From positions 1 through 17,605 of IMG/VR virus record IMGVR_UViG_2675903413_000004: 17,605 bases of DNA, one strand, 5' to 3'. Source of the DNA: a virus. Its lineage: Duplodnaviria; Heunggongvirae; Uroviricota; Caudoviricetes. The position numbers and the translations under genes were made by a program. The notes below the pieces were generated by a model. It was not told where the DNA came from, ran no database searches, and worked only from the letters and a program-made list of their open reading frames with translations. Within the stretch, counting starts at the first letter, position 1. Every line of letters starts with the position of its first letter. Below are positions 8,555-17,605 of this stretch, in pieces.

Positions 8555-8926
8555 TGTCTGGGAGTAGACGTTACCGGCATTGGCCAGGGTGTTTTTGACA
8601 ACATTCAGCATTTTGCCATGCGCGTGGCCGTCCCTATTCGTTACGACCTGAACACCAAAAATCAACTGGTGCTGAAAGCGGTGGACGTGGTGGAAAGCCA
8701 ACGTATTGAGTGGGATAAAAACCTGAAAGAGATCGCGGCCAGCTTTATGTCTGTGCGCCGAACCACCACACAAAGCGGCAACGCCATGACGTTTGTCGCT
8801 GACCGCAGCCAGGATACTGGCCACGCGGAGGCGTTCTGGGCGATTACCCACGGTCTGCATAACGAACCCCTTAACTATGAAAACAAACCTAAATCCCGCT
8901 GGGGTGTAAGGAAAGAGGCAGCATGA
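8555..8926 (+). pseudogene. 5'-truncated remnant of terminase large (ATPase) subunit gene (gpP-like), C-terminal ~100-120 codons only
   Basis: Frame is open from 8438 to a stop at 8924-8926 that overlaps the portal ATG, but the only ATG (8618) has no SD. Protein-like sequence (..CLGVDVTGIGQGVFDNIQHFA-MRVAV..) begins about 8555 with no start codon. In P2-family phages the gene immediately upstream of the portal is terminase P. Confidence 0.4.
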
Positions 8927-9984
8927 GTAAAAAGAAACGCTTTGTTAAGCGCGACCAGCGCGGCGACAAATCAAAAAAGATGAGCATTATCACATTCGGC
9001 AAACCTGAACCGGTTCTGACTACCGGCACAGATTACCGTGATATCTGGTACGACAATGCCGCCGATCACTTCACCCAGCCGATTGACCGGCTGGCACTCG
9101 CACAGCTGATTAATCTTAACGGTCAGCACGGCGGCATCATTCACGCCCGCAAAAACATGATTGTTTCAGACTACCTGGGGGGCGGGCTTATTCACGACCA
9201 GCTGGAAGCGGCAGCGTTTGACTATATAACCTTTGGGGATATTGCGATTGCCAAAATTCGTAACGGCTGGGGCGACGTGATCGCACTTGAACCCTTGCCC
9301 GGTCTGTATATTCGCCGCCGCAAAGTCAGAGATAACGCCCTGGATAAGCCCGGTGACTACGTGGTGTTACAGGAAGGAGAACCGCAGGTATGGCCAGAAG
9401 AAGATATTATCTTCATCAAAATGTATGACCCACAACAGCATATCTACGGACTGCCGGACTACATCGGCGGTGTGCATTCCGCGTTACTTAACAGTGAAGC
9501 GGTCATTTTCCGACGCCGCTATTACCACAACGGTGCGCACACAGGCGGTATTCTTTATACTCGCGATCCCAGCATGACGGACGAAATGGAGGAAGAAATT
9601 GAACAGCAGCTGCGTGACAGCAAAGGGATCGGTAACTTCTCCACCATCCTTGTAAACATTCCCGGTGGAGACGGCGACGCCATCAAATTCATTGAAATGG
9701 GGGATATTTCCGCGAAGGATGAATTTGCCAACATCAAAAACATCAGCGCCCAGGACATTCTGAACGCGCACCGTTTCCCTGCCGGCCTCGCCGGTATTGT
9801 CCCGCAGAACACTGCCGGACTGGGGGATGTTGAAAAGGCTGAACGCATTTACAAGAAAAGCGAAATTGCCCCCATCCAGCGCCGTTTCATGCTGGCCGTT
9901 AACAACGATCCTGAAATACCGGAAAGGCTACACCTTAACTTTGATTTAAGTTACACAGAATCAACGGATAAGGGTGCGGCATGA
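8923..9984 (+). CDS. Q: Portal protein (P2 gpQ-like)
   Basis: 353 aa starting MSKKKRF... with GAGG SD 5 nt upstream. Long stretches (DYRDIWYD, RLALAQLINLN, HGGI, ARKNMIV, AVIFRRRYYHNGAH, ISAKDEFANIKNISAQD-LNAHRFPAGLAGI-PQNT-GLGD) match the P2 portal as recalled; needs search confirmation. Confidence 0.7.
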   Translation: MSKKKRFVKRDQRGDKSKKMSIITFGKPEPVLTTGTDYRDIWYDNAADHFTQPIDRLALAQLINLNGQHGGIIHARKNMIVSDYLGGGLIHDQLEAAAFDYITFGDIAIAKIRNGWGDVIALEPLPGLYIRRRKVRDNALDKPGDYVVLQEGEPQVWPEEDIIFIKMYDPQQHIYGLPDYIGGVHSALLNSEAVIFRRRYYHNGAHTGGILYTRDPSMTDEMEEEIEQQLRDSKGIGNFSTILVNIPGGDGDAIKFIEMGDISAKDEFANIKNISAQDILNAHRFPAGLAGIVPQNTAGLGDVEKAERIYKKSEIAPIQRRFMLAVNNDPEIPERLHLNFDLSYTESTDKGAA

Positions 9985-10034
9985 GGCGAAAGAGGCTAAA
10001 ATCCAGGCATCATTTAACAGCTGGAGCATGGAAT

Positions 10035-10304
10035 ATGCGAGTTCTGAAAATCGAATGCCCGGAATGCGGCTCAAAGGCTGTTATTCGTAAAACAAACAGG
10101 AAGCACCGGCAGATTGCCGATATTTACTGTGCCTGTTCAGATGTTGAGTGTGGCCACACGTTTGTTATGAATCTGACGTTCTCCCACACTCTCAGCCCCA
10201 GCGCTAAAACGGGTGATGCGATGGTGCAAAAAATACTGAATGCACTTTCACCCGATCAGCGCCAGATGGCATTAGACCTACTGAAAGCGACTCCCGCCGC
10301 CTGA
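10035..10304 (+). CDS. ogr: Ogr/Delta-family zinc-finger late-gene transcriptional activator
   Basis: ORF track 9981..10304; the ATG at 10035 has GGAG 8 nt upstream and places the zinc finger at the N-terminus as in Ogr. Motif CPECG-x20-CACSDVECGHTF matches the Ogr/Delta C-x2-C...C-x4-C-x2-TF signature. The 9981 start (ATGA-coupled to portal stop) is not excluded. Confidence 0.75.
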   Translation: MRVLKIECPECGSKAVIRKTNRKHRQIADIYCACSDVECGHTFVMNLTFSHTLSPSAKTGDAMVQKILNALSPDQRQMALDLLKATPAA

Positions 10305-10484
10305 AATGCCCCCATTCTGGGGGCGTTGCCCTTCCTTTTTAACTATTTCGCGAACCTCTCCCGCAAGCTCTCCAATCCAGGCCAAAGCGATTGTTTTTTC
10401 TCTCTGGTTACTTTCGTAAACATGGGCAATTTTGGCCAATAACTCAATGCGTTCCAGCTGTGCCGACGCCTCCAAAAGATCCAT
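10278..10484 (-). CDS. Hypothetical small protein (68 aa) between replication gene and late activator
   Basis: ATG at 10482-10484 preceded by GGGGG 4 nt upstream; N-terminal 50 residues look helical and protein-like. The 3' end overlaps the ogr stop and the hairpin, so the true end is doubtful. Confidence 0.25.
   Translation of the reverse strand: MDLLEASAQLERIELLAKIAHVYESNQREKTIALAWIGELAGEVREIVKKEGQRPQNGGISGGGSRFQ
10308..10340 (+). terminator. Possible (non-canonical) terminator after the late activator gene
   Basis: Perfect 6-bp GC stem GCCCCC (10308-10313), loop ATTCT, GGGGGC (10319-10324), but the T5 run (10336-10340) is 11 nt downstream rather than adjacent. Confidence 0.3.
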
Positions 10485-10603
10485 TTAGCCCCCACAAGCA
10501 ATAAATAACTGGATATACATACAGTACACCTTAAAGCACGAATTGTGAAATTTAATTTCCTGCCATCTACTGACAAATGAATGCCTTTCACATAATTACA
10601 CCG

Positions 10604-12625
10604 CTATAACCACCCCGGCCACAGTTCCTGCAATGGCTCGTTTTGAGTCTCTTTAAGCCGCCCGTTGCGGTAAATCAGAGCGCCCTGACCAAATCTCAAA
10701 CCACTACCCCGCAAGAGAATGGCTATTTCTTCATCAGAACCATCAAAACCCCGACTGCGTAATTCCAGTTTTAACCGTCTGCGGGTTCCCCCCTCCGTAC
10801 AGTTATTGACAGAACTCCAAGGGGCGGCGTTGCCGCCAGAAAAACCCGCCTCCGCTGGCGCTTCGGCCAACTTCGCAACCTTTTGCCACTTAACCAGACG
10901 GGTGCAAACTTCTGAATCAGGAACCAAAGGAGAATAAACCCCCTGTATGCGCTGCACGTCCTCTGCATACTCGTTGCCCTGTTCCGTAATTTCATAGGCC
11001 AGACGAACAACCAGATCACGGCGGGCAACCAGTGCACCGCCCTGCGCCTGGGTATATGCAGCCCAGTCCCCGACATCAGCAGCGGCCAGAACCGCATCCA
11101 TTCTGCGATCGGTCAGCACCTGATCCCGCAACCGACGCAGCTCACGCCAGACAGTTACCGGCGCACCACCAATCTGCTGAAACTGACGAATACGCCAGCG
11201 TGAAGCCCATGCAGAAACGGACTTAGCCATATCACGCAGGTTTTCGCCGGTTTCTTCGTCATGCTCACCATCCAGCGCAAAACCATCAATATTTTTTGAA
11301 ATGTATTTCGCGATGTAGCCCGTGGCCGAACCTTTGGCGGGATCGATAGCTTCAACATGAAAACGCGCCTTCAGCGCCTTTTCAGATTGCAGTTCTTCAG
11401 AATCGGTAATTCTGGCGTGATAGCAAAGAATATCGCGTACCGTGTCCACGTCATGCGGACGCATAAAAAGCAACATATGCCAGTGCGGTGTCCCGTCATG
11501 GTGAGGCTCAACAACCCGAAACCCAAATACATGAATACCCGCACGCGAGATCGCTGCGCGTGCTTTTGCCCATACGCCGCATAAATAGCGCTGGGTATCC
11601 TGCGGCGTACATCCATCCCATTGCGATACAAAGCCACCTTTGCTGTGCACTGCGTGGAAACGTGATGGCGCGGTGATGGTGTAAAACTCACCGGCCAGCC
11701 CTTCTTCATTGGCCATATCTTCAAACCCTCGCATTCTTACCATTAGTTCACATCGACGGATCGCCGGATTTGCAACGCTGCGGTGCACCATGCTGTCCAG
11801 TGCAATGCGCAGCCCCTCATCATTCAGCAGATCAAACTTTTTAAAGAACTCCAGATTCCGCTTTTTCTGGTCTATCCATTCGTCCAGTGTTTTGCGGGAT
11901 ACATAAGCGCTGGCCGCTTTTTGTACCTGTCCCACCGCGATGGCCATATGTTCGCGCTGCATATCACGCGCACGTTTAAGACGTAGGTACCACCATTCCG
12001 GCGCCATCATGCGCAGTATCCCGGATTCCGCCTTACGCATTTCCAGTTGACCTTCATTGGCCTCATGTTCAGCCCAGTACGGCGGCTGGTTATTCAGCAT
12101 CAGGCAACCCGCGCAAAGATGGCGGTATGATTCCAAGGTGCGGCGATGCAGCTCTCTGGCGTCGTCAGTGCCAGAGTCAAACTGTTCGGTGAAGTCATAA
12201 AGTGACTGGGAAATCCAACCAGATACCTGGCCAGCCAGTTTTTTAAGATCAGGACGGTCTAGTGACGGCAAGCGCTCCAGCGACTTACCAAAAGGAAGAT
12301 CAGCAGCGTCAGCGGCCAGCGAGTAACGCGCAGCCACTTTGCGCAGACGTGGCAATACACTCCCGCCGATAGTCTGGCGCAGGAATGTATTGGCACGGCG
12401 ACGCCCGTCACGACCAGCAAACAGCTTTTCGTAACGACGGCCAAAATACCCGGCTAACCAGTCGGGTATCTCATGAAGGTACTGTGAGCGCCATTCGTAA
12501 TCCTGCGGGTTAACCGCCCACAGGCGGCGCTCAGTGAGCGTGGCGTCTGTAGGTGTACCCGGTGCGAACGTTTCACGCCGCCAGGTATCGACGGCGTGAT
12601 GTTGGCCATTGGCGACAGGAGTCAT
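10604..12625 (-). CDS. Rolling-circle replication initiation protein (P2 gpA / 186 RepA family, HUH endonuclease)
   Basis: 673 aa; HUH-like motif GTPHWHMLLF and catalytic-tyrosine motif GYIAKYISKNIDG; position downstream of the cII-early operon as in P2/186. ATG at 12623-12625. Confidence 0.8.
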   Translation of the reverse strand: MTPVANGQHHAVDTWRRETFAPGTPTDATLTERRLWAVNPQDYEWRSQYLHEIPDWLAGYFGRRYEKLFAGRDGRRRANTFLRQTIGGSVLPRLRKVAARYSLAADAADLPFGKSLERLPSLDRPDLKKLAGQVSGWISQSLYDFTEQFDSGTDDARELHRRTLESYRHLCAGCLMLNNQPPYWAEHEANEGQLEMRKAESGILRMMAPEWWYLRLKRARDMQREHMAIAVGQVQKAASAYVSRKTLDEWIDQKKRNLEFFKKFDLLNDEGLRIALDSMVHRSVANPAIRRCELMVRMRGFEDMANEEGLAGEFYTITAPSRFHAVHSKGGFVSQWDGCTPQDTQRYLCGVWAKARAAISRAGIHVFGFRVVEPHHDGTPHWHMLLFMRPHDVDTVRDILCYHARITDSEELQSEKALKARFHVEAIDPAKGSATGYIAKYISKNIDGFALDGEHDEETGENLRDMAKSVSAWASRWRIRQFQQIGGAPVTVWRELRRLRDQVLTDRRMDAVLAAADVGDWAAYTQAQGGALVARRDLVVRLAYEITEQGNEYAEDVQRIQGVYSPLVPDSEVCTRLVKWQKVAKLAEAPAEAGFSGGNAAPWSSVNNCTEGGTRRRLKLELRSRGFDGSDEEIAILLRGSGLRFGQGALIYRNGRLKETQNEPLQELWPGWL

Positions 12626-13482
12626 GCGCAGGCCATCGCTATAGAACCAAGCGGCGACTTCAGAATTAACTCTGCGGCAACTTTCTGGCTTGCAGCTGCG
12701 GCACCAACACTACGTGGGGCATTAATGCGAACGGCTTCAAATCCGGCGTACAGGTAATGCACCATTTCCAGATCGGCATTAGAGGCCACAACCGGCACAC
12801 CTTTTCTGGCCAGACGGCGCAACTTACGCGCCAGCCTCCCCTGATCCATGTGCGAAAAACCGCGCTCATGGTAAGCGGTGAAATTGTCGCTTTCAGTCAG
12901 ATAAGGCGGATCACAGTAAACAACGTCATTCCCGTCCCGAACCAAATCGAGCGTTTCTGAATAGTGGGCAGTAATGAACGTTGCGCGTTTCGCTTTTTCA
13001 GCAAAGGCACGGATTTCATCAGCGGGAAAATAAGGCTTTTTGTACTTACCGAACGGGACGTTGAACTGGCCTCGGCGATTATACCGGCACAGGCCATTGA
13101 AGCAGTGGCGATTCAGGTACAGGAAACGCGCAGCATTTTCAACAGATTCAGAACCGGCCTTACCACCAGAAAGATTGAAAGCATCACGCACTGCGTAATA
13201 GAAAATGGCACGGCTTTCTTCATCACCTAACGAACCGGCAGTAAACAGGATCTCCAGCTCATTCAGCAGCGCATCAGTGTGATACGCCATCGCCTTATAA
13301 AGATTAACCAGATCAGGATTCACATCTGCGATCAGATACTCGTCATAATCCGTATTCATCATGACAGCGCAGGAACCTGCGAACGGTTCAACCAGGCGTT
13401 TACCTTCTGGAAGGTGCGGACGCAGCATAGGCATAATGCGGGCTTTGCTGCCCACCCATTTAAGCGGAGTTTTTATTGCCAT
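12622..13482 (-). CDS. dam: DNA adenine methyltransferase, Dam family (N6-adenine, probable GATC specificity)
   Basis: ORF track starts at TTG 13503; first ATG is 13480-13482 (MAIKTPLKWVGSKARIM...). Motif I VEPFAGSCAV, motif IV DPPY, and FLYLNRHCFNGLCRYNRRGQFNVPFGKYKKPYFP almost identical in pattern to E. coli Dam. Stop overlaps the repA ATG (ATGA). Confidence 0.85.
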   Translation of the reverse strand: MAIKTPLKWVGSKARIMPMLRPHLPEGKRLVEPFAGSCAVMMNTDYDEYLIADVNPDLVNLYKAMAYHTDALLNELEILFTAGSLGDEESRAIFYYAVRDAFNLSGGKAGSESVENAARFLYLNRHCFNGLCRYNRRGQFNVPFGKYKKPYFPADEIRAFAEKAKRATFITAHYSETLDLVRDGNDVVYCDPPYLTESDNFTAYHERGFSHMDQGRLARKLRRLARKGVPVVASNADLEMVHYLYAGFEAVRINAPRSVGAAAASQKVAAELILKSPLGSIAMACA

Positions 13483-13706
13483 GCCGCACCGCCTTTGCTG
13501 CAAATCGCCGCGGCTTCTTCGCGGATCAACTCAACGATTTCCGTTGCGCTTAAACCTTCATTGGCTGCATGGGTGGCCAGCTTATTCAGACGGGTGGAAC
13601 ACAAATCAGCAGCAGCGGCTTTACCTTCCTGCGTGGCTTTGGTGAGCATTGCCAGCAGGTCAGTGACTGATTTTGTTGCGGGTAAATCCTGACGTGTCAT
13701 ATGCAT
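13473..13706 (-). CDS. Hypothetical early protein (77 aa)
   Basis: ATG at 13704-13706 with AGGA 9 nt upstream; Ala-rich helical protein; stop lies inside the start region of dam. Confidence 0.45.
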   Translation of the reverse strand: MHMTRQDLPATKSVTDLLAMLTKATQEGKAAAADLCSTRLNKLATHAANEGLSATEIVELIREEAAAICSKGGAAWQ

Positions 13707-13773
13707 TTTGGTTTCCTTAAGGCAAAAGAATCCCCGGCCACTTGAAACATGGCCAAAAAATTCAGGCGGTTAA

Positions 13774-14175
13774 TTAGTGAAAAGTGGGGTGTACTGTGGC
13801 AGCTGAGTAGTTCGGTACCGGAATCAGGTGCAGTTCATAGGTTGTCCGCCACCACTCCTGGATCAGTGCATTTATCTCGCCAACTCCCAGCGCCCCGGCT
13901 GTATAGAAAATCGCACGAATCCCCGCCAGCGCTTCTATCTGGGCTTCTTTGCTTTCCGCTTCGCGATACACGCAGCACCAGAAAGCGGCATTGATCGCCA
14001 GCCAGTGACGCGGATTCGTCATGTGCTCGGTGTCATTGAAGAAGAACGGATGCAAAGCGATGCGGCCATTTTTACTGGTGCTTTTCTCTGTAAACACTAC
14101 AGCGTAGTTATGCGGGACACCCCACACAGCCAGTTCAGCCCCCAACGATTTACCCTCAACGGAAATAATGGTCAT
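13774..14175 (-). CDS. Hypothetical early protein (133 aa)
   Basis: ATG at 14173-14175 overlaps the upstream stop TAA (14175-14177) by one nucleotide (TAATG); coding-like composition; no recognised motif. Confidence 0.5.
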   Translation of the reverse strand: MTIISVEGKSLGAELAVWGVPHNYAVVFTEKSTSKNGRIALHPFFFNDTEHMTNPRHWLAINAAFWCCVYREAESKEAQIEALAGIRAIFYTAGALGVGEINALIQEWWRTTYELHLIPVPNYSAATVHPTFH

Positions 14176-14798
14176 TAGTGATTCCCCTGTTGCTGGAACT
14201 TATGGACGATATGAGGTGCAATCACCATCTGTACCCCACTACTGCTATAAATTGGATGTGCCTTTTTGATCGGGCGGTTCGCGGTGCGCTTTGAAAAATC
14301 GCTGTCACGTAAACTGCCGAAACCTTCAAACGTTAACCGCGCCCGTGAAATGCCCTGGCGCAGTTGAATCATGTCCCGATAGCCCAGGCGTTCATAAATC
14401 TCACGCCAGCAACATTTGCTTAAGTGGGCTTTAAATGCCCCGGAACCAGAAGTAACCGCAGCAGCATGAAGCACCACGCCGCGCCACTCCGGTGTTAAGT
14501 TGTCCCACCATTCAGCGGCCTCGCTGCTTTCGTTGAAGTATTTGCGGCGGATCTGTTTTAAATGCTCCAGCCCGCGCTTTTGCTGTTCCTGGCTAATCGC
14601 CATAACGCCCCCTATAGTCCCATCAGACGACGCCACCACGGGCGGCGCGGCTGCTGGCCATTGAATTTGTACATGTGGCCAGGGTTCCAGCGCTGACCGT
14701 TTGGCAGTTCTATCCAGCCCGTTGAACCACTCGGCAACTGCATGGCTGGTGATTCTTTTTTCAGGTAAGTGACAAACGCTTTCATGGTGTTCCCTCAC
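14175..14798 (-). CDS. Hypothetical early protein (207 aa from GTG, or 142 aa from internal ATG at 14603)
   Basis: GTG start at 14796-14798 overlaps the cII stop (GTGA); alternative ATG at 14601-14603 has GGGGG 4 nt upstream. Trp-rich segment EWWDNLTPEWRGVV; no recognised family. Confidence 0.5.
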   Translation of the reverse strand: MREHHESVCHLPEKRITSHAVAEWFNGLDRTAKRSALEPWPHVQIQWPAAAPPVVASSDGTIGGVMAISQEQQKRGLEHLKQIRRKYFNESSEAAEWWDNLTPEWRGVVLHAAAVTSGSGAFKAHLSKCCWREIYERLGYRDMIQLRQGISRARLTFEGFGSLRDSDFSKRTANRPIKKAHPIYSSSGVQMVIAPHIVHKFQQQGNH

Positions 14799-15298
14799 AT
14801 CAGGCCGGTGGCGTTGGTTGTGACCAGCTCCACCGCCGCAGCCAGAACAGGCGCAGAGTGAATACGGCTTTCAACGGTATAAGCCAGCACGGATAAGCTA
14901 CGGATTGCATCGCGGGCACGATCCAGAATTTGAGTACGGCGGGCGGCAGTCATATAGCCAGTTGATACGGCTTCCCCAGCAATCGCGCCCACACTGGCTG
15001 TGGCACTCAGTGCGCACAACTGCATGTTGCCTTCTGTGGCATTGTTCACCGGCACGGATGGAAGGCAGTTAATCTGACCTAACATCCCATCAAGCAAACG
15101 CGCATCTTCGGTGTAATCCGTGATAGCCAAAAGCTCATCACAGGTCAGGCGGTGCGGTTGTGCTGGGTTCAGTTTGTTGCGCAGGATCTGCGGCCTCATA
15201 CCAACGGCAGCGGCCACATCTTCAAGATTGTGCTCAATTGCAAATGCTCGGCAAGCCGCATCAAAGTGCGCATGTTTAGAGGTCTGGTAATCAAACAT
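14795..15298 (-). CDS. cII: CII-like lysogeny-establishment transcriptional activator (phage 186 CII family)
   Basis: 167 aa beginning MFDYQTSKHAHFDAACRAFA..., with ..RNKLNPAQPH.. matching 186 CII as recalled; GGGAGAGG SD upstream; second gene of the operon divergent from cI. Confidence 0.65.
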   Translation of the reverse strand: MFDYQTSKHAHFDAACRAFAIEHNLEDVAAAVGMRPQILRNKLNPAQPHRLTCDELLAITDYTEDARLLDGMLGQINCLPSVPVNNATEGNMQLCALSATASVGAIAGEAVSTGYMTAARRTQILDRARDAIRSLSVLAYTVESRIHSAPVLAAAVELVTTNATGLM

Positions 15299-15328
15299 TG
15301 TTTGCCTCTCCCGAATCCGTAGGATGGA

Positions 15329-15550
15329 TTACGCGTTAAGCGAAATGTCACATTCGCTTAAAGCCTGAATAGTGAGCGCGGCCATGTTGACTTCGACCAA
15401 GCCTTTCTTCTGCTTACCCTTCGGCTTAATAGGTAATTTCCCGTATTCGATCAGGTTCCTGGCGGTTTCTTTGTTGGTACCAGTACGGCGGCAATACTCG
15501 TCTAAAGGCAGGTATGGCTCAGGGATGATGATTGTAATGTTCGGACGCAT
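15329..15550 (-). CDS. apl: Apl/Cox-like excisionase and lytic-switch regulator (phage 186 Apl family)
   Basis: ORF track starts at TTG 15583; first ATG is 15548-15550 (MRPNITIIIPEPYLPLDEYCRRTG...), GGAG 8 nt upstream. Small basic protein, first gene of the operon divergent from cI, as in 186. Confidence 0.6.
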   Translation of the reverse strand: MRPNITIIIPEPYLPLDEYCRRTGTNKETARNLIEYGKLPIKPKGKQKKGLVEVNMAALTIQALSECDISLNA

Positions 15551-15685
15551 GAGGCAAACTCCACAAGTTAACCTGTACGGCAATACAGGGTTATATAAGG
15601 CAACATTCGAAATATGGAGCCAGATTAATTCGTGTTTCGAGAAGTGTCAATTTTAATTTCTCGAATCGAGACTTATGGATTCGCT
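15551..15685. promoter_or_regulatory. Lysis-lysogeny switch region between apl and cI with candidate convergently firing promoters and TCGA-type repeats
   Basis: Minus-strand perfect -35 TTGACA (15650-15645) with weak -10 candidates 15-17 bp downstream (about 15629-15622), directed at apl. Plus-strand TTAACC (15568-15573) and TATATA (15592-15597), directed at cI. The two would fire toward each other. Palindrome CTCGA-A-TCGAG at 15660-15670 plus TTCGAA (15606-15611) and TTTCGAG (15635-15641). Confidence 0.35.
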
Positions 15686-16267
15686 ATGAGCACATTTAAA
15701 ATCGACCTAAACGTAGATAGCACACCGATTCTTGACAGGGTGATCGAGGCTTACGGATTTACGCAGAAGTTACAGCTCGCGGAACATCTGGACATGGCAG
15801 CCAGTTCTCTTTCTTCACGCTACAAGCGTGGAGTTTTCCCGGCAGACATTGTCGTGAAATGTGTAGCCGAAACAGGCGCTAATCTGGAGTGGCTGGCGAC
15901 AGGACAGGGACGTAAATTTAATGATGATGAATTAGACATACTCAAAATACCGCGCAGCAAGATTGTTGATGGCCAACTCTATGACGCTGGCACACTTATG
16001 CTTGATAAAGTCATCTTCCTGCCTGGTAAGCCCTTACCGCAACAACCGATTTGTGTTCTGGATGGCCTTGTTCAGTACATTGTTGACCAGTCTTATTCTG
16101 AAGTTTATGACGATGATTGGTTGGTTGAAGTTGAAGGAAAAACAAGCGTCCGCACTCTTACACGGATTCCGGTACGAAAAGTCAGAGTTAGCGGTGTTGG
16201 TATGGCATTTGATTGCGGAATTGACGACATAAAAATCATAGGCCGCGTTGTTCTGACGATAAAATAA
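15686..16267 (+). CDS. cI: CI immunity repressor (phage 186 CI family)
   Basis: ORF track starts at GTG 15632; ATG at 15686 gives a 193-aa product. Segments DRVIEAYGFTQKLQLAEH...SSLS.RY and ETGANLEWLATGQG resemble 186 CI as recalled; stop is 1 nt before the int ATG. Confidence 0.7.
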   Translation: MSTFKIDLNVDSTPILDRVIEAYGFTQKLQLAEHLDMAASSLSSRYKRGVFPADIVVKCVAETGANLEWLATGQGRKFNDDELDILKIPRSKIVDGQLYDAGTLMLDKVIFLPGKPLPQQPICVLDGLVQYIVDQSYSEVYDDDWLVEVEGKTSVRTLTRIPVRKVRVSGVGMAFDCGIDDIKIIGRVVLTIK

Positions 16268-16268
16268 A

Positions 16269-17309
16269 ATGAGCGTTCGTAAACTTCCTACAGGCGAATG
16301 GATCGCCGACTTCTACACCGTCAACCGCAGTAATGGCAAGAACGGGAAGCGTATACGTAAAAAATTTGCCACGAAAGGGGAAGCCCTGGCATTCGAAAAC
16401 CATACGCTTCAGAAAGTAGACGCAGCTCCGTGGCTGGGTGAAGGGAAGGACAAGCGAACTTTAATAGATCTGATAACAATGTGGTATGAACGCCACGGCG
16501 TAGCTTTGAGCAATGGCGAAAAGCGTAAAAATGCTATGACCTGGGCGGCGGAATGCATGGGATTCCCGCTGGCCACAGAATTTAATGCCCAGTTGTTCAC
16601 AGCCTACCGCGCTAAAAGGCTGGATGGGCATTATGCCCGTACCAACAGAGTATCTAAGGTTTCCCCGAAAACTATGAACCTTGAACATGCTTACTTCCTG
16701 GCTATGTTCAACGAGCTGAAACGGATTGGTGAATGGTCAGCACCCAACCCACTAGAAAACGTCAGACAGTATCGTACTGATGAAACCGAAATGGCTTTCC
16801 TCACTACCGAAGAAATTGATCGGCTTTTACTGGAATGCAAACGAAGTAAAGTTAAGTACCTAGAATTAGTTGTCAAAATCTGCCTTGCTACCGGCGCAAG
16901 GTGGAATGAGGCGGCAACGCTGAAAAGCTCCCAGATCGCCGGGGGTAAAGTCACGTTCGTCAAAACCAAAGGGAAGCGCAACAGAACAATTCCCCTTGAT
17001 GATGAACTTCTGTCCGAATTACCTGAAACAAAAGGCGCTCTGTTCCCCAAGCCCTGCTACAACGCTTTCCGCTCTGCTCTGGAACGTGCAGGCATTGAAC
17101 TCCCCTCCGGCCAGCTTACCCATGTACTGCGCCATACATTTGCCAGCCACTTTATGATGAACGGCGGAAACATTCTGGTTCTGCAAAAAATTCTCGGCCA
17201 CGCTGACATCACTATGACAATGCGTTATGCCCATTTCGCCCCAAGCCACCTTGAAGATGCCGTGCGACTTAACCCCTTAAAATGTCGCAAAAATGTCGCG
17301 ACAGCTTAG
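16269..17309 (+). CDS. int: Tyrosine-type site-specific integrase (P2/186 Int family)
   Basis: 346 aa; C-terminal catalytic signature ..ATGARWNEA.., HVLRHTFASHF, LGHADITMTMRYAHF (R...HxxR...Y); almost contiguous with cI, as in the 186 cI-int operon. Confidence 0.9.
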   Translation: MSVRKLPTGEWIADFYTVNRSNGKNGKRIRKKFATKGEALAFENHTLQKVDAAPWLGEGKDKRTLIDLITMWYERHGVALSNGEKRKNAMTWAAECMGFPLATEFNAQLFTAYRAKRLDGHYARTNRVSKVSPKTMNLEHAYFLAMFNELKRIGEWSAPNPLENVRQYRTDETEMAFLTTEEIDRLLLECKRSKVKYLELVVKICLATGARWNEAATLKSSQIAGGKVTFVKTKGKRNRTIPLDDELLSELPETKGALFPKPCYNAFRSALERAGIELPSGQLTHVLRHTFASHFMMNGGNILVLQKILGHADITMTMRYAHFAPSHLEDAVRLNPLKCRKNVATA

Positions 17310-17344
17310 AAATACTGCCGAATACTCACAGATATTAACTAACG

Positions 17345-17373
17345 TAACTTATTGATAACACTGTAAGTTATTG
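17345..17373. repeat. Direct repeats in the int-proximal arm (possible Int arm-type or IHF sites)
   Basis: TAACTTATTG (17345-17354) and TAAGTTATTG (17364-17373), 9/10 identical, in the AT-rich region between the int stop and the candidate core. Confidence 0.25.
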
Positions 17374-17427
17374 TTTTTCGTAGATAGTTGATGCTTTATA
17401 ATATAGCCTGTGCTATATCTGTATGTA

Positions 17428-17447
17428 ATGCAATCATCCCTCAAGGA
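17428..17447. repeat. Right copy of imperfect direct repeat (candidate attachment-site core)
   Basis: ATGCAATCATCCCTCAAGGA; see the left copy at 357-377. Lies 118 bp past the int stop. Confidence 0.35.
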
Positions 17448-17476
17448 TCGACGGGATTAGCAAGTCAGGAGGTCTT

Positions 17477-17605
17477 ATGAATGAGTTCAAGAGGTGTATG
17501 CGCGTGTTTAGTCATTCTCCCTTTAAAGTACGGTTAATGCTGCTCTCTATGTTGTGCGATATGGTCAACAACAAACCGCAGCAAGATAAACCTTCCGATA
17601 AATAG
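17477..17605 (+). CDS. Small ORF (42 aa) with strong ribosome-binding site; probably flanking host gene
   Basis: AGGAGG (17467-17472) 4 nt upstream of the ATG at 17477; MNEFKRCMRVFSHSPFKVRLMLLSMLCDMVNNKPQQDKPSDK; stop TAG is the last codon of the window. Confidence 0.35.
   Translation: MNEFKRCMRVFSHSPFKVRLMLLSMLCDMVNNKPQQDKPSDK

Follow-up and report, generated by a model that had tools for sequence, protein, structure and literature searches.

The window analysed here, a stretch of DNA of 17,605 nucleotides, carries on its minus strand the early genes of a 186/P2-type E. coli prophage, in the order apl, cII, fil, a gpB-like gene (o142), o133, a tR1-like terminator, a DUF2732 gene, dam and A (Table 1). 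A first-pass annotation had placed early-operon genes of a P2/186-family prophage between cII and dam, which is borne out. However, it had counted three genes in this interval, and there are four. A RefSeq prophage annotated by PGAP is 100% identical over a 1.5-kb query (window positions 13400-14900); its annotation contains the DUF2732 gene and o133 exactly as in Table 1, and also fil and a 142-aa protein starting at ATG 14603.

Table 1. Features of the cII-dam interval and its neighbours, in window coordinates.
Feature	Position	Strand	Description
cII (186-type CII, Phage_CP76)	14795..15298	-	upstream neighbour of the block; Pfam PF06892, E 1.8e-46
fil	14612..14785	-	57 aa; homolog of 186 Fil, which inhibits cell division (filamentation); Pfam Phage_186_Fil
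o142	14175..14603	-	142 aa, basic; short divergent homolog of the P2 GpB N-terminal module
o133	13774..14175	-	133 aa; phrog_3935, family without annotated function
Terminator-like hairpin and T-tract	13721..13759	-	terminator scan; homolog of 186 tR1
DUF2732 gene	13473..13706	-	77 aa; homolog of P2 Orf80 / 186 CP80
dam (D12-class N6-adenine methyltransferase)	12622..13482	-	Pfam PF02086, E 1.1e-65; PGAP start ATG 13482
Replication gene A	10604..12625	-	downstream end of the variable slot

Gene models, fil and the terminator region

Two of the three ORFs originally claimed, o133 and the DUF2732 gene, are real genes according to both PGAP and the purifying selection acting on them. The third, a 207-aa ORF spanning 14175-14798, was over-extended. 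Its GTG start at 14798 does overlap the cII stop (GTGA) and open a frame of 207 codons, as had been pointed out, but its first 65 codons overlap fil (14612-14785) in another frame. Because fil lies inside the 5' part of this longer ORF, in a different frame, it was overlooked. Stop codons interrupt the 207-aa frame across the fil region in 12 of 13 relatives, and in a relative with 96-98% identical proteins such a stop lies 25 codons upstream of the o142 ATG. Moreover, the full-length homologs of o142 have 136-146 aa and none has about 207 (105 clusters, whose shorter and few longer entries are partial matches). Given the frame stops in relatives, the coding signal of fil, the homolog lengths and the PGAP calls, we conclude that GTG 14798 opens a chance frame rather than a gene, that o142 starts at ATG 14603 with the ribosome-binding site GGGGGcgttATG, and that the interval holds four genes. 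A one-nucleotide stop/start overlap had also been reported, correctly: the o142 stop shares a nucleotide with the o133 start in TAATG at 14175, and this arrangement is kept as TAATG, TGATG or ATGA in most relatives. Such an overlap suggests that o133 is translationally coupled to o142.

The fil ORF begins 9 nt past the cII stop, in the same order as in 186, behind a strong Shine-Dalgarno sequence (GAGGGAacaccATG). In all 17 related loci the reading frame stays open and the ribosome-binding site is conserved. Its substitutions by codon position 1/2/3 number 94/70/213 (chi-square p = 5e-21), and its dN/dS lies between 0.05 and 0.16 in all but the most distant of eight comparisons, where it reaches 0.37. 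Residues 1-37 match the Pfam family PF10893, Phage_186_Fil (E = 3e-10; score 40.1 bits, cut-off 25), and the protein also matches phrog_7623 (4.5e-30) and phrog_816, "cell division inhibitor" (3e-8); PGAP's name for it is "phage filamentation protein Fil family". With a score above the Pfam gathering cut-off, we assign fil to this known family on the basis of its predicted protein.

The last gene before dam, whose start (ATG 13482) its 3' end overlaps by 10 nt, encodes a protein matching PF10809, the widespread DUF2732 family (E = 1.5e-11; score 44.5 bits, cut-off 25). PGAP likewise calls a DUF2732 family protein, and the protein falls in the same phrog as P2 Orf80, phrog_128 (2e-21). The dN/dS of the gene is 0.06-0.19. 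The annotation of CP80 in the 186 record as non-essential suggests that this, too, is a non-essential early protein. The DUF2732 gene is the first one downstream of a terminator of the tR1 type: between o133 and DUF2732, just upstream of the latter, lies a hairpin with a T-tract (GGCCAtgtttcaagTGGCC GGGGATTCTTTTGCC). This hairpin occurs in 17 of 17 related loci, its stem nearly invariant and its loop variable; a covariation test across these 17 loci detected no compensatory double changes, so the stem is simply conserved. The hairpin and the annotated 186 tR1 have GGG[GC]ATTCTTTTGCC in common, and the close variant GGGGCTTCTTTTTGCC is found in the annotated putative terminator downstream of B in P2. 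By sequence, the putative terminator region is a homolog of both 186 tR1 and the putative P2 terminator past B. A search of Rfam gave no match in the window.

o142 compared with P2 GpB

The first-pass annotation had recognised none of its three families. It is true that the products of o133 and the DUF2732 gene have no known function. However, DUF2732 can be identified with P2 Orf80 and 186 CP80, and o142 proves to be GpB-like, so that two of the three ORFs can be related to known P2/186 early genes, the second of them remotely. This goes part of the way towards the outcome that the first-pass annotation had itself named as refuting its reading, homology of all three to well-characterised early genes.

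The link to GpB is not apparent from standard searches. The 105 clusters of o142 homologs are all named hypothetical, NCBIfam yielded no model at E <= 1 and our local Pfam copy none at E <= 10, and the precomputed Pfam family PF26815, carried by every listed P2 B homolog, is absent from 105 of 105 o142 clusters. (Two fragmentary o142 clusters carry other, unrelated Pfam families.) In the PHROG search o142 matched phrog_33841 and did not match phrog_235, to which P2 B belongs. When the o142 and o133 profiles were compared directly by hhalign with all of the P2/186 early proteins, P2 B and 186 Dhr included, no score rose above background; for o142 against the P2 B family alone the profile-profile comparison was not significant (E = 0.07-0.13), and a merged profile gave 0.006. 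The idea of a relationship to GpB was first rejected because of this background-level result and was reopened by the annotation of a Yersinia phage.

That phage, vB_YenM_324, names its gp07 "replication protein GpB", a label that comes from record annotation and not from experiment. The hhalign probability for o142 and gp07 is 98.3% (E = 2e-14). In turn, gp07 matches phrog_5349 (8e-6) and phrog_14551 (1.4e-5), and P2 B matches phrog_14551 (1e-11), phrog_602 (1e-9) and phrog_5349 (1.7e-5). Among sub-threshold matches in the o142 family phrog_602 is the commonest (15 of 46 members), and another intermediate, PV94 gp08, matches phrog_235 (3e-4). Further bridges were found with hhalign between the B profile and PV94 gp08 (E = 3.9e-5) and between a combined profile of o142 and the Yersinia protein and Vibrio 10N gp7 (E = 1.5e-5); about 50 unrelated pairs, used as controls, all gave E >= 0.06. 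The alignment register is identical across all bridging pairs.

Iterative hmmsearch in a set of 3983 ORFs gave the same picture. Seeded with the o142 family, the search reaches P2 B residues 18-95 at E = 6.4e-9 with B not yet in the model; in the opposite direction, a search begun with the P2 B profile finds o142 at E = 9.8e-9. Both end in exactly the same 128 ORFs, with one ORF in every locus except one, which has two, and draw in no other families. In addition, in every lineage examined o142 occupies the genomic slot of P2 B, i.e., past cox/orf78 or cII/fil and ahead of the terminator and orf80 (DUF2732); the P2 order is cox-orf78-B-terminator-orf80. Both proteins are small, basic and helical: o142 has a pI of 9.95 (about 9.9 family-wide), and its AlphaFold2 model is all-helical at moderate confidence (pLDDT 69.7), with no fold match and no DNA-binding fold found. 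The dN/dS of the gene is 0.06-0.10.

Taken together, the intermediate sequences identify o142 as a remote relative of P2 replication protein B, homologous to its N-terminal module: residues ~25-97 of o142 correspond to residues 18-95 of B (about 75 residues). It is important to note the extent of this relationship. With 142 aa against 166, o142 lacks the C-terminal 70 residues of B: region 96-166 has no counterpart in o142, and the o142 tail (98-142) has none in B, the conserved tail motif FG.L.D.DF...MVIAP being o142's own. Since only the N-terminal module aligns, the function of o142 could differ from that of GpB. Scans with the single proteins Yersinia gp07 and PV94 gp08 retrieved close relatives only, and a viral-contig scan with P2 B retrieved near-identical copies only, too uniform for a diverse profile. 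Within P2 B, residues 34-86 and 97-150 resemble each other weakly, as an internal repeat would, but not significantly.

Distribution and features of o133

The full length of o133 matches phrog_3935 (E = 8e-52, residues 1-124), and its homologs form 93 clusters. A full HMMER pass of the o133 profile over 1.84 billion protein representatives recovered 33 clusters, none of which contains an annotated relative. The protein showed no homology to known families and no enzyme-typical motif. Its AlphaFold2 model is confident (pLDDT 87.5, pTM 0.83), and Foldseek found no match for it in BFVD. Like its neighbours the gene is well conserved, with a dN/dS of 0.08-0.14, and conserved aromatic or charged residues lie on the surface of the protein (N47, W66, R87, W108, W109 and H116). 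Homologs extend to Yersinia (gp08 of vB_YenM_324, 49% identity) and to Vibrio P2-like phages (hhalign about 96%, E = 3e-9).

We identified 167 loci with an o133-like gene. A B-like gene is present in 126 of these, directly upstream of the o133-like gene in 77 of the 126; in Vibrio loci that have a B-like gene, another gene lies between the two. Neither 186 nor any of 81 P2-type loci has the gene. Within a large sub-lineage of P2-like phages it belongs to the conserved early core, and its distribution is complementary to that of the long GpB: o142 is always followed by o133, short B-like genes occur with it, and P2-type loci lack it. However, a strict partnership between o133 and the B-like gene is not supported, because 41 Vibrio-type loci have an o133-like gene with no detectable B-like gene.

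Conservation of the block and possible roles

The first-pass annotation had viewed the interval between cII and dam as a slot for variable accessory genes. The relatives contradict this. The block of cII, fil, B-like gene, o133 and DUF2732 is strictly syntenic in Enterobacteriaceae and Yersinia loci, and Vibrio loci have cII, B-like and o133-like genes in this order with other genes interposed. The Quadragintavirus Escherichia phages ESSI2_ev015, ev040 and ev129, with 89-95% DNA identity over the interval, have the same four genes, entered in their records as hypothetical, DUF2724 or DUF2732. Cronobacter phage ESSI-2 lies further off, with 73% identity across 59% of this region, and its record has no fil call and overlapping mis-called ORFs over the B-like gene. 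In vB_YenM_324, gp06-gp09 are fil, "replication protein GpB", a hypothetical protein and a DUF2732-like protein, and the gene order (cII, fil, B-like, o133-like, DUF2732-like, A) is identical; its sequences have diverged further, gp07 is the shorter protein at 124 aa, and the DUF2732-like gene and A have no dam between them. Variation is instead concentrated between DUF2732 and A, a slot that holds dam alone here, and an exonuclease, a DUF3850 gene and dam in relatives with 95-98% identical proteins; the three ESSI2 phages and ESSI-2 likewise have additional exonuclease and DUF3850 genes ahead of dam.

Nonetheless, it could be proposed that these are accessory early genes which vary between lineages, serve host takeover, defence or anti-defence, and have nothing to do with the housekeeping functions of the phage. 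Neither o133 nor DUF2732 has an assigned function, the 186 record describes the DUF2732 homolog CP80 as not essential, fil itself is a host-takeover gene, and o133 is missing from P2 and 186. A search of the literature on DUF2732, vB_YenM_324 and 186 dhr/fil found nothing functional. However, the order of this block is fixed across Enterobacteriaceae and Yersinia, o133-like and B-like genes reach into Vibrio P2-like phages, and 167 loci contain o133; the slot that does vary is the neighbouring one. All four genes are under purifying selection, their dN/dS of about 0.05-0.2 being as low as that of cII and A, whereas anti-defence cargo typically turns over rapidly; o142 is homologous to a replication protein. 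Among defence models, PADLOC gave no match for fil, o142 or o133 and one weak partial match for DUF2732 (E = 0.008, 12.8 bits). Scans of o142 and o133 against Pfam, NCBIfam and PADLOC returned nothing meaningful, and their family profiles had chance-level matches only among PDB sequences. We thus consider an accessory or defence role for the genes quite unlikely. The interval is an ordinary conserved part of the early-operon core and not variable cargo; of its genes, one is a divergent version of a known gene and another an uncharacterised member of the core.

Comparison with 186 suggests another potential role for o133. The prophage shares with 186 the repressor type (CI, with Phage_CI_repr and CI_C domains), apl/cox, CII (PF06892) and fil and, past fil, a homologous putative terminator of the tR1 type, the DUF2732 gene and the replication gene A. 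The differences lie past DUF2732, where 186 has CP81-CP84 and our prophage only dam; after A, where 186 has a tum/orf97 region that is lacking here; and in the segment between fil and tR1. In 186 (cII-fil-dhr-tR1-CP80) this segment holds dhr, encoding 66 aa, and here it holds the B-like gene and o133, both of which are absent from 186. Occupying the position of dhr, o133 might be a functional analog of Dhr: a small protein, made early, that lowers DNA replication in the host and leaves the B-like protein and A to drive that of the phage. It adjoins a replication gene, and its conserved surface residues would suit a binding protein better than an enzyme. However, the likeness to Dhr is entirely one of position: o133 and Dhr differ in size (133 against 66 aa) and show no sequence similarity (hhalign E = 0.2), and the comparisons of o142 and o133 gave E = 0.13-0.23 against Dhr (phrog_6069), which is the background level. 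An analogy with Dhr therefore strikes us as very unlikely.

It is highly improbable that an ancient helical module is all that o142 has in common with P2 B and that the protein does another job, such as a DNA-binding regulator or antiterminator at the adjacent tR1: the short alignment, the protein's own tail, its strongly basic character throughout the family and the anti-termination of terminators in this region during early lytic transcription, according to the 186 record, would agree with such a job, but o142 lies in the slot of B in every lineage examined, its family merges cleanly with B in iterative searches to the exclusion of other families, and its model revealed no DNA-binding fold.

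The reading we prefer, and consider likely, is that we see here the core, next to the promoter, of the early lytic operon in an E. coli prophage of 186/P2 type (Peduoviridae, Quadragintavirus-like), with four genes, a GpB-like o142, and roles as follows. Fil would transiently block division of the host, a phenotype taken from the annotation of the 186 gene. P2 B reportedly interacts with DnaB, and phage DNA (lagging-strand) synthesis is said to need B. By analogy, o142 would serve as an accessory replication protein: it would engage the DnaB helicase of the host, and this engagement would let the A-nicked rolling-circle replicon assemble a replisome. For o133, the most likely role would be to work with the B-like protein in replication or replisome hijacking. 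It appears to accompany short, single-module B-like proteins, and to be absent where B is long (166 aa, P2) or where there is no B, as in 186, which is reportedly dnaC-dependent; o133 may thus be a partner of, or a substitute for, the C-terminal part of P2 B. A stronger version of this idea, which we consider doubtful, is that o133 is the obligatory second subunit of a two-part helicase-recruitment device. In such a device, GpB-like proteins of the short single-module kind (o142 type, 110-145 aa) would depend on o133 for engaging DnaB or the A-nicked origin, with o133 playing the part that falls to the C-terminal domain within the single chain of the 166-aa P2 GpB.

These results have consequences for annotation and possibly for phage biology. 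A missed fil and a mis-called o142 start are corrected, and the truly variable cargo slot is relocated to the interval between DUF2732 and A. A "hypothetical protein" of at least 105 enterobacterial prophage clusters can now be tied, at the level of remote sequence relationships, to the P2 B family, a link that no curated model detects. If o133 is a replication cofactor, it would add to our understanding of how rolling-circle P2-like phages capture the host helicase, and would explain why this lineage differs from P2, which has B alone, and from 186, which has no B. Should the two-part device exist, o133 would be a new and widespread component of replisome hijacking, present in more than 160 loci from Escherichia to Vibrio and with a fold unmatched in PDB and BFVD.

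Gene content of the cII-dam interval

The window is a P2/186-family prophage of E. coli. A prophage inserted beside mntS/opgE in E. coli 1919D3 matches positions 8557-17605 at 99.99% identity. The interval between cII and dam shares 89-95% identity with three phages of Quadragintavirus (Peduoviridae): Escherichia phages ESSI2_ev015, ev040 and ev129. The first-pass annotation placed three ORFs in this interval. Those of 133 and 77 aa are as it described, and the one-base stop/start overlap (TAATG) that it noted at 14175 is real; most relatives keep TAATG, TGATG or ATGA there. The third, a 207-aa ORF with its GTG start overlapping the cII stop, is spurious: the frame happens to be open by chance. 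Within its first 65 codons, in a different frame, lies a fil ORF with a strong ribosome-binding site, which scores 40.1 bits against the Pfam family (gathering score 25) and is labeled a Fil-family protein by PGAP. This ORF is open in 17 related loci from at least 10 genera, at 57-75 aa, except that the copy in one degraded prophage is frameshifted. In most of the 17 loci, including a relative with 96-98% identical proteins, stops close the 207-aa frame upstream of o142; of 13 distinct relatives, 12 have stops in that frame over the fil region. At fil codon positions 1, 2 and 3 there are 94, 70 and 213 substitutions (p 5e-21). Homologs of the 142-aa protein (o142) form 105 clusters, and the full-length ones are 136-146 aa long and start at MAI. 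Given the evidence for fil, the stops in relatives and the lengths of the homologs, the interval therefore contains four genes, all with dN/dS of roughly 0.05-0.2, similar to cII, dam and A.

Features of the early operon in the window
Feature	Position	Strand	Description
Early operon		minus	apl/cox, cII, interval, dam, A
apl/cox	about 15329-15550	minus	early operon member
cII	14795-15298	minus	Pfam Phage_CP76, E 2e-46
fil	14612-14785	minus	57 aa, Phage_186_Fil
o142	ATG at 14603	minus	142 aa
o133	13774-14175	minus	133 aa
DUF2732 gene	13473-13706	minus	77 aa
dam	12622-13482	minus	follows the interval
A	10604-12625	minus	replication gene, follows dam

The C-terminus of Fil varies in length among these 57-75-aa proteins, and the conserved portion is residues 1-45. 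The end of fil runs over the o142 ATG by about 11 nt in most relatives (e.g., L005:4001-4011); in the window, fil stops 8 nt short of it (14604-14611). The same gene-model problem recurs in public records: that of Cronobacter phage ESSI-2 (L017:3320-4078) has no fil call, and its o142-type gene is covered by three ORF calls that overlap, with an antisense one among them. The prophage copy in Enterobacter sp. EA-1 (L016:3350-4800) is decaying, with frameshifts splitting cII, the o142-type gene and the o133 homolog.

The gap between the end of A and ogr is about 300 nt (10305-10603). The tum/orf97 SOS module of 186 is absent from it, although the window's repressor is a 186-type CI, and so is the orf91/tin/old cargo of P2. 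The window is colinear with the complete 1919D3 prophage only from 8557 rightwards; left of the 8557/8558 junction, the match to that prophage resumes after a jump of about 4.96 kb onwards. Because of this jump the head genes are missing and only the last 102 codons of the large terminase are present (8618-8926, plus strand). Minus-strand tail genes (neck/tail completion, sheath, tube, tape measure and baseplate) follow the terminase remnant. A junction-spanning query found no match of at least 80% coverage in any of 5426 complete E. coli genomes. The prophage has the appearance of a deletion derivative, probably a defective one.

Relationship of o142 to P2 replication protein B

The gene orders of P2 (cox-orf78-B-terminator-orf80) and 186 (cII-fil-dhr-tR1-CP80) are such that o142 and o133 occupy the exact slot of P2 B and 186 dhr. 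No curated library that we scanned recognizes o142, and its AF2 model, which is helical and of only moderate confidence, yielded no fold match. Direct profile comparison of o142 with P2 B or 186 Dhr stayed at background level.

A tblastn search with o133 led to Yersinia phage vB_YenM_324, with the gene order cII-fil-gp07-gp08-gp09-A. Its o133 homolog is gp08; gp07, annotated as replication protein GpB, matches the o142 profile (98.3% probability, E 2e-14). Both gp07 and P2 B match phrog_5349 and phrog_14551. In two P2-like phages of Vibrio, the gene immediately following cII encodes a further bridging protein: PV94 gp08 matches the P2 B profile (E 3.9e-5) and 10N gp7 a combined o142 and gp07 profile (E 1.5e-5), while none of about 50 unrelated control pairs did better than 0.06. 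All pairwise alignments share a single register, in which o142 residue 31 corresponds to PV94 residue 70 and B residue 34.

For a formal test, 146 further loci were gathered via o133 relatives and all 3983 plus-strand ORFs were subjected to iterative hmmsearch. The o142-seeded profile matched P2 B residues 18-95 (E 6.4e-9) in round 2, which brought in only five new matches, with a model still free of B sequences. The reverse search, seeded with the P2 B family, passed through PV94 gp08 and Yersinia gp07 to the window's o142 (E 9.8e-9). Both searches end on the identical 128 ORFs, one per locus except for one locus with two. On the bridging matches and these converging searches, we take o142 to be genuinely, if distantly, homologous to the N-terminal module of P2 GpB. 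We do not regard it as a full-length GpB member: the C-terminal 70 residues of B have no counterpart in o142, whose own tail is conserved. P2 B reportedly engages DnaB, and by analogy o142 may be a DnaB-engaging replication accessory.

The pattern L/M-x4-R-x4-5-HA-x-L ... C-x-W/F occurs twice in the product of P2 gene B (L019:1959-2459), in residues 34-86 and in residues 97-150. GpB may contain a weak internal repeat of the module shared with o142; the second copy scores below significance.

The o133 family

With the o133 profile, a full HMMER pass over 1.84 billion representatives yielded only 33 protein clusters. The family nevertheless ranges more widely than that of o142, reaching Yersinia (49% identity) and Vibrio P2-like phages (hhalign about 96%). 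Over this range only M1, W66, W108 and W109 are invariant, and I4, N47, R87, A93 and H116 are nearly so, a pattern more suggestive of a binding scaffold than of an enzyme.

A B-like gene, i.e., an o142-type relative of P2 B, is detectable in 126 of 167 loci with an o133-like gene, lying directly upstream in 77 of these. Enterobacteriaceae and Yersinia loci have the order cII-fil-Blike-o133-DUF2732-[variable]-A. The o133-like gene is absent from 81 P2-type loci with a long B, and 186 has neither gene. In the other 41 loci, which are Vibrio-type (L227-L267, IMG/VR), the B-like gene is not detectable. Between cII and o133, these 41 carry an ASCH-like gene plus two small ORFs, unrelated to it and of about 96 and 135 aa; these may stand in for the B-like protein as non-homologous replacements. 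Our best guess, which is tentative, is that o133 acts together with the B-like protein, in replication or in capture of the replisome. Alternatively, o133 may be a Dhr-like inhibitor of host replication or have another takeover role.

The DUF2732 region and the variable slot

The 77-aa protein belongs to DUF2732 (44.5 bits versus 25) and to phrog_128, in common with P2 Orf80; in 186 it corresponds to CP80, which the annotation of that record calls "not essential". The 67-nt gap upstream of its gene contains a hairpin and T-tract (minus strand, 13759-13721) that is kept in every relative, with a near-invariant stem and a variable loop. Its 3' half and the next bases, GGGGATTCTTTTGCC, are recognizably the same sequence as the annotated tR1 of 186, GGGCATTCTTTTGCC, and the putative terminator after P2 gene B, GGGGCTTCTTTTTGCC. 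No compensatory changes were seen in this hairpin among relatives. RNAalifold predicts a second small hairpin (13707-13730, minus strand), in which the T-tract UUCUUU of this putative terminator pairs with the DUF2732 Shine-Dalgarno sequence AAGGAA; its changes are one-sided, with none compensatory. Such a hairpin could link DUF2732 translation to termination or readthrough.

The proposal that the interval is a variable accessory slot does not hold. The variable slot lies between DUF2732 and A. In the window it contains dam alone, in relatives with 95-98% identical proteins a 3'-5' exonuclease, a DUF3850 (ASCH-like) gene and dam (e.g., L002:4418-5448, L004:4425-5341), and in other loci different small ORFs. 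The depositors of Vibrio phage 10N.286.54.F9_PE001 (L102:1385-3285) compare two of its early genes, cII and an ASCH-like one, with ORFb and ORFd of retron Ec67. Retron Ec67 is carried in a prophage with the same type of early operon, dam gene included.

The interval is ordinary early-operon core, already annotated in RefSeq as fil, two hypotheticals and DUF2732. Of the three families left unrecognized by the first-pass annotation, only o133 stays an orphan; the 77-aa ORF is DUF2732, and the 207-aa region resolves into fil and the distant GpB homolog. The useful outcomes are the corrected gene model and the newly supported link between o142 and P2 GpB, and o133, as a conserved orphan, merits a simple experiment.
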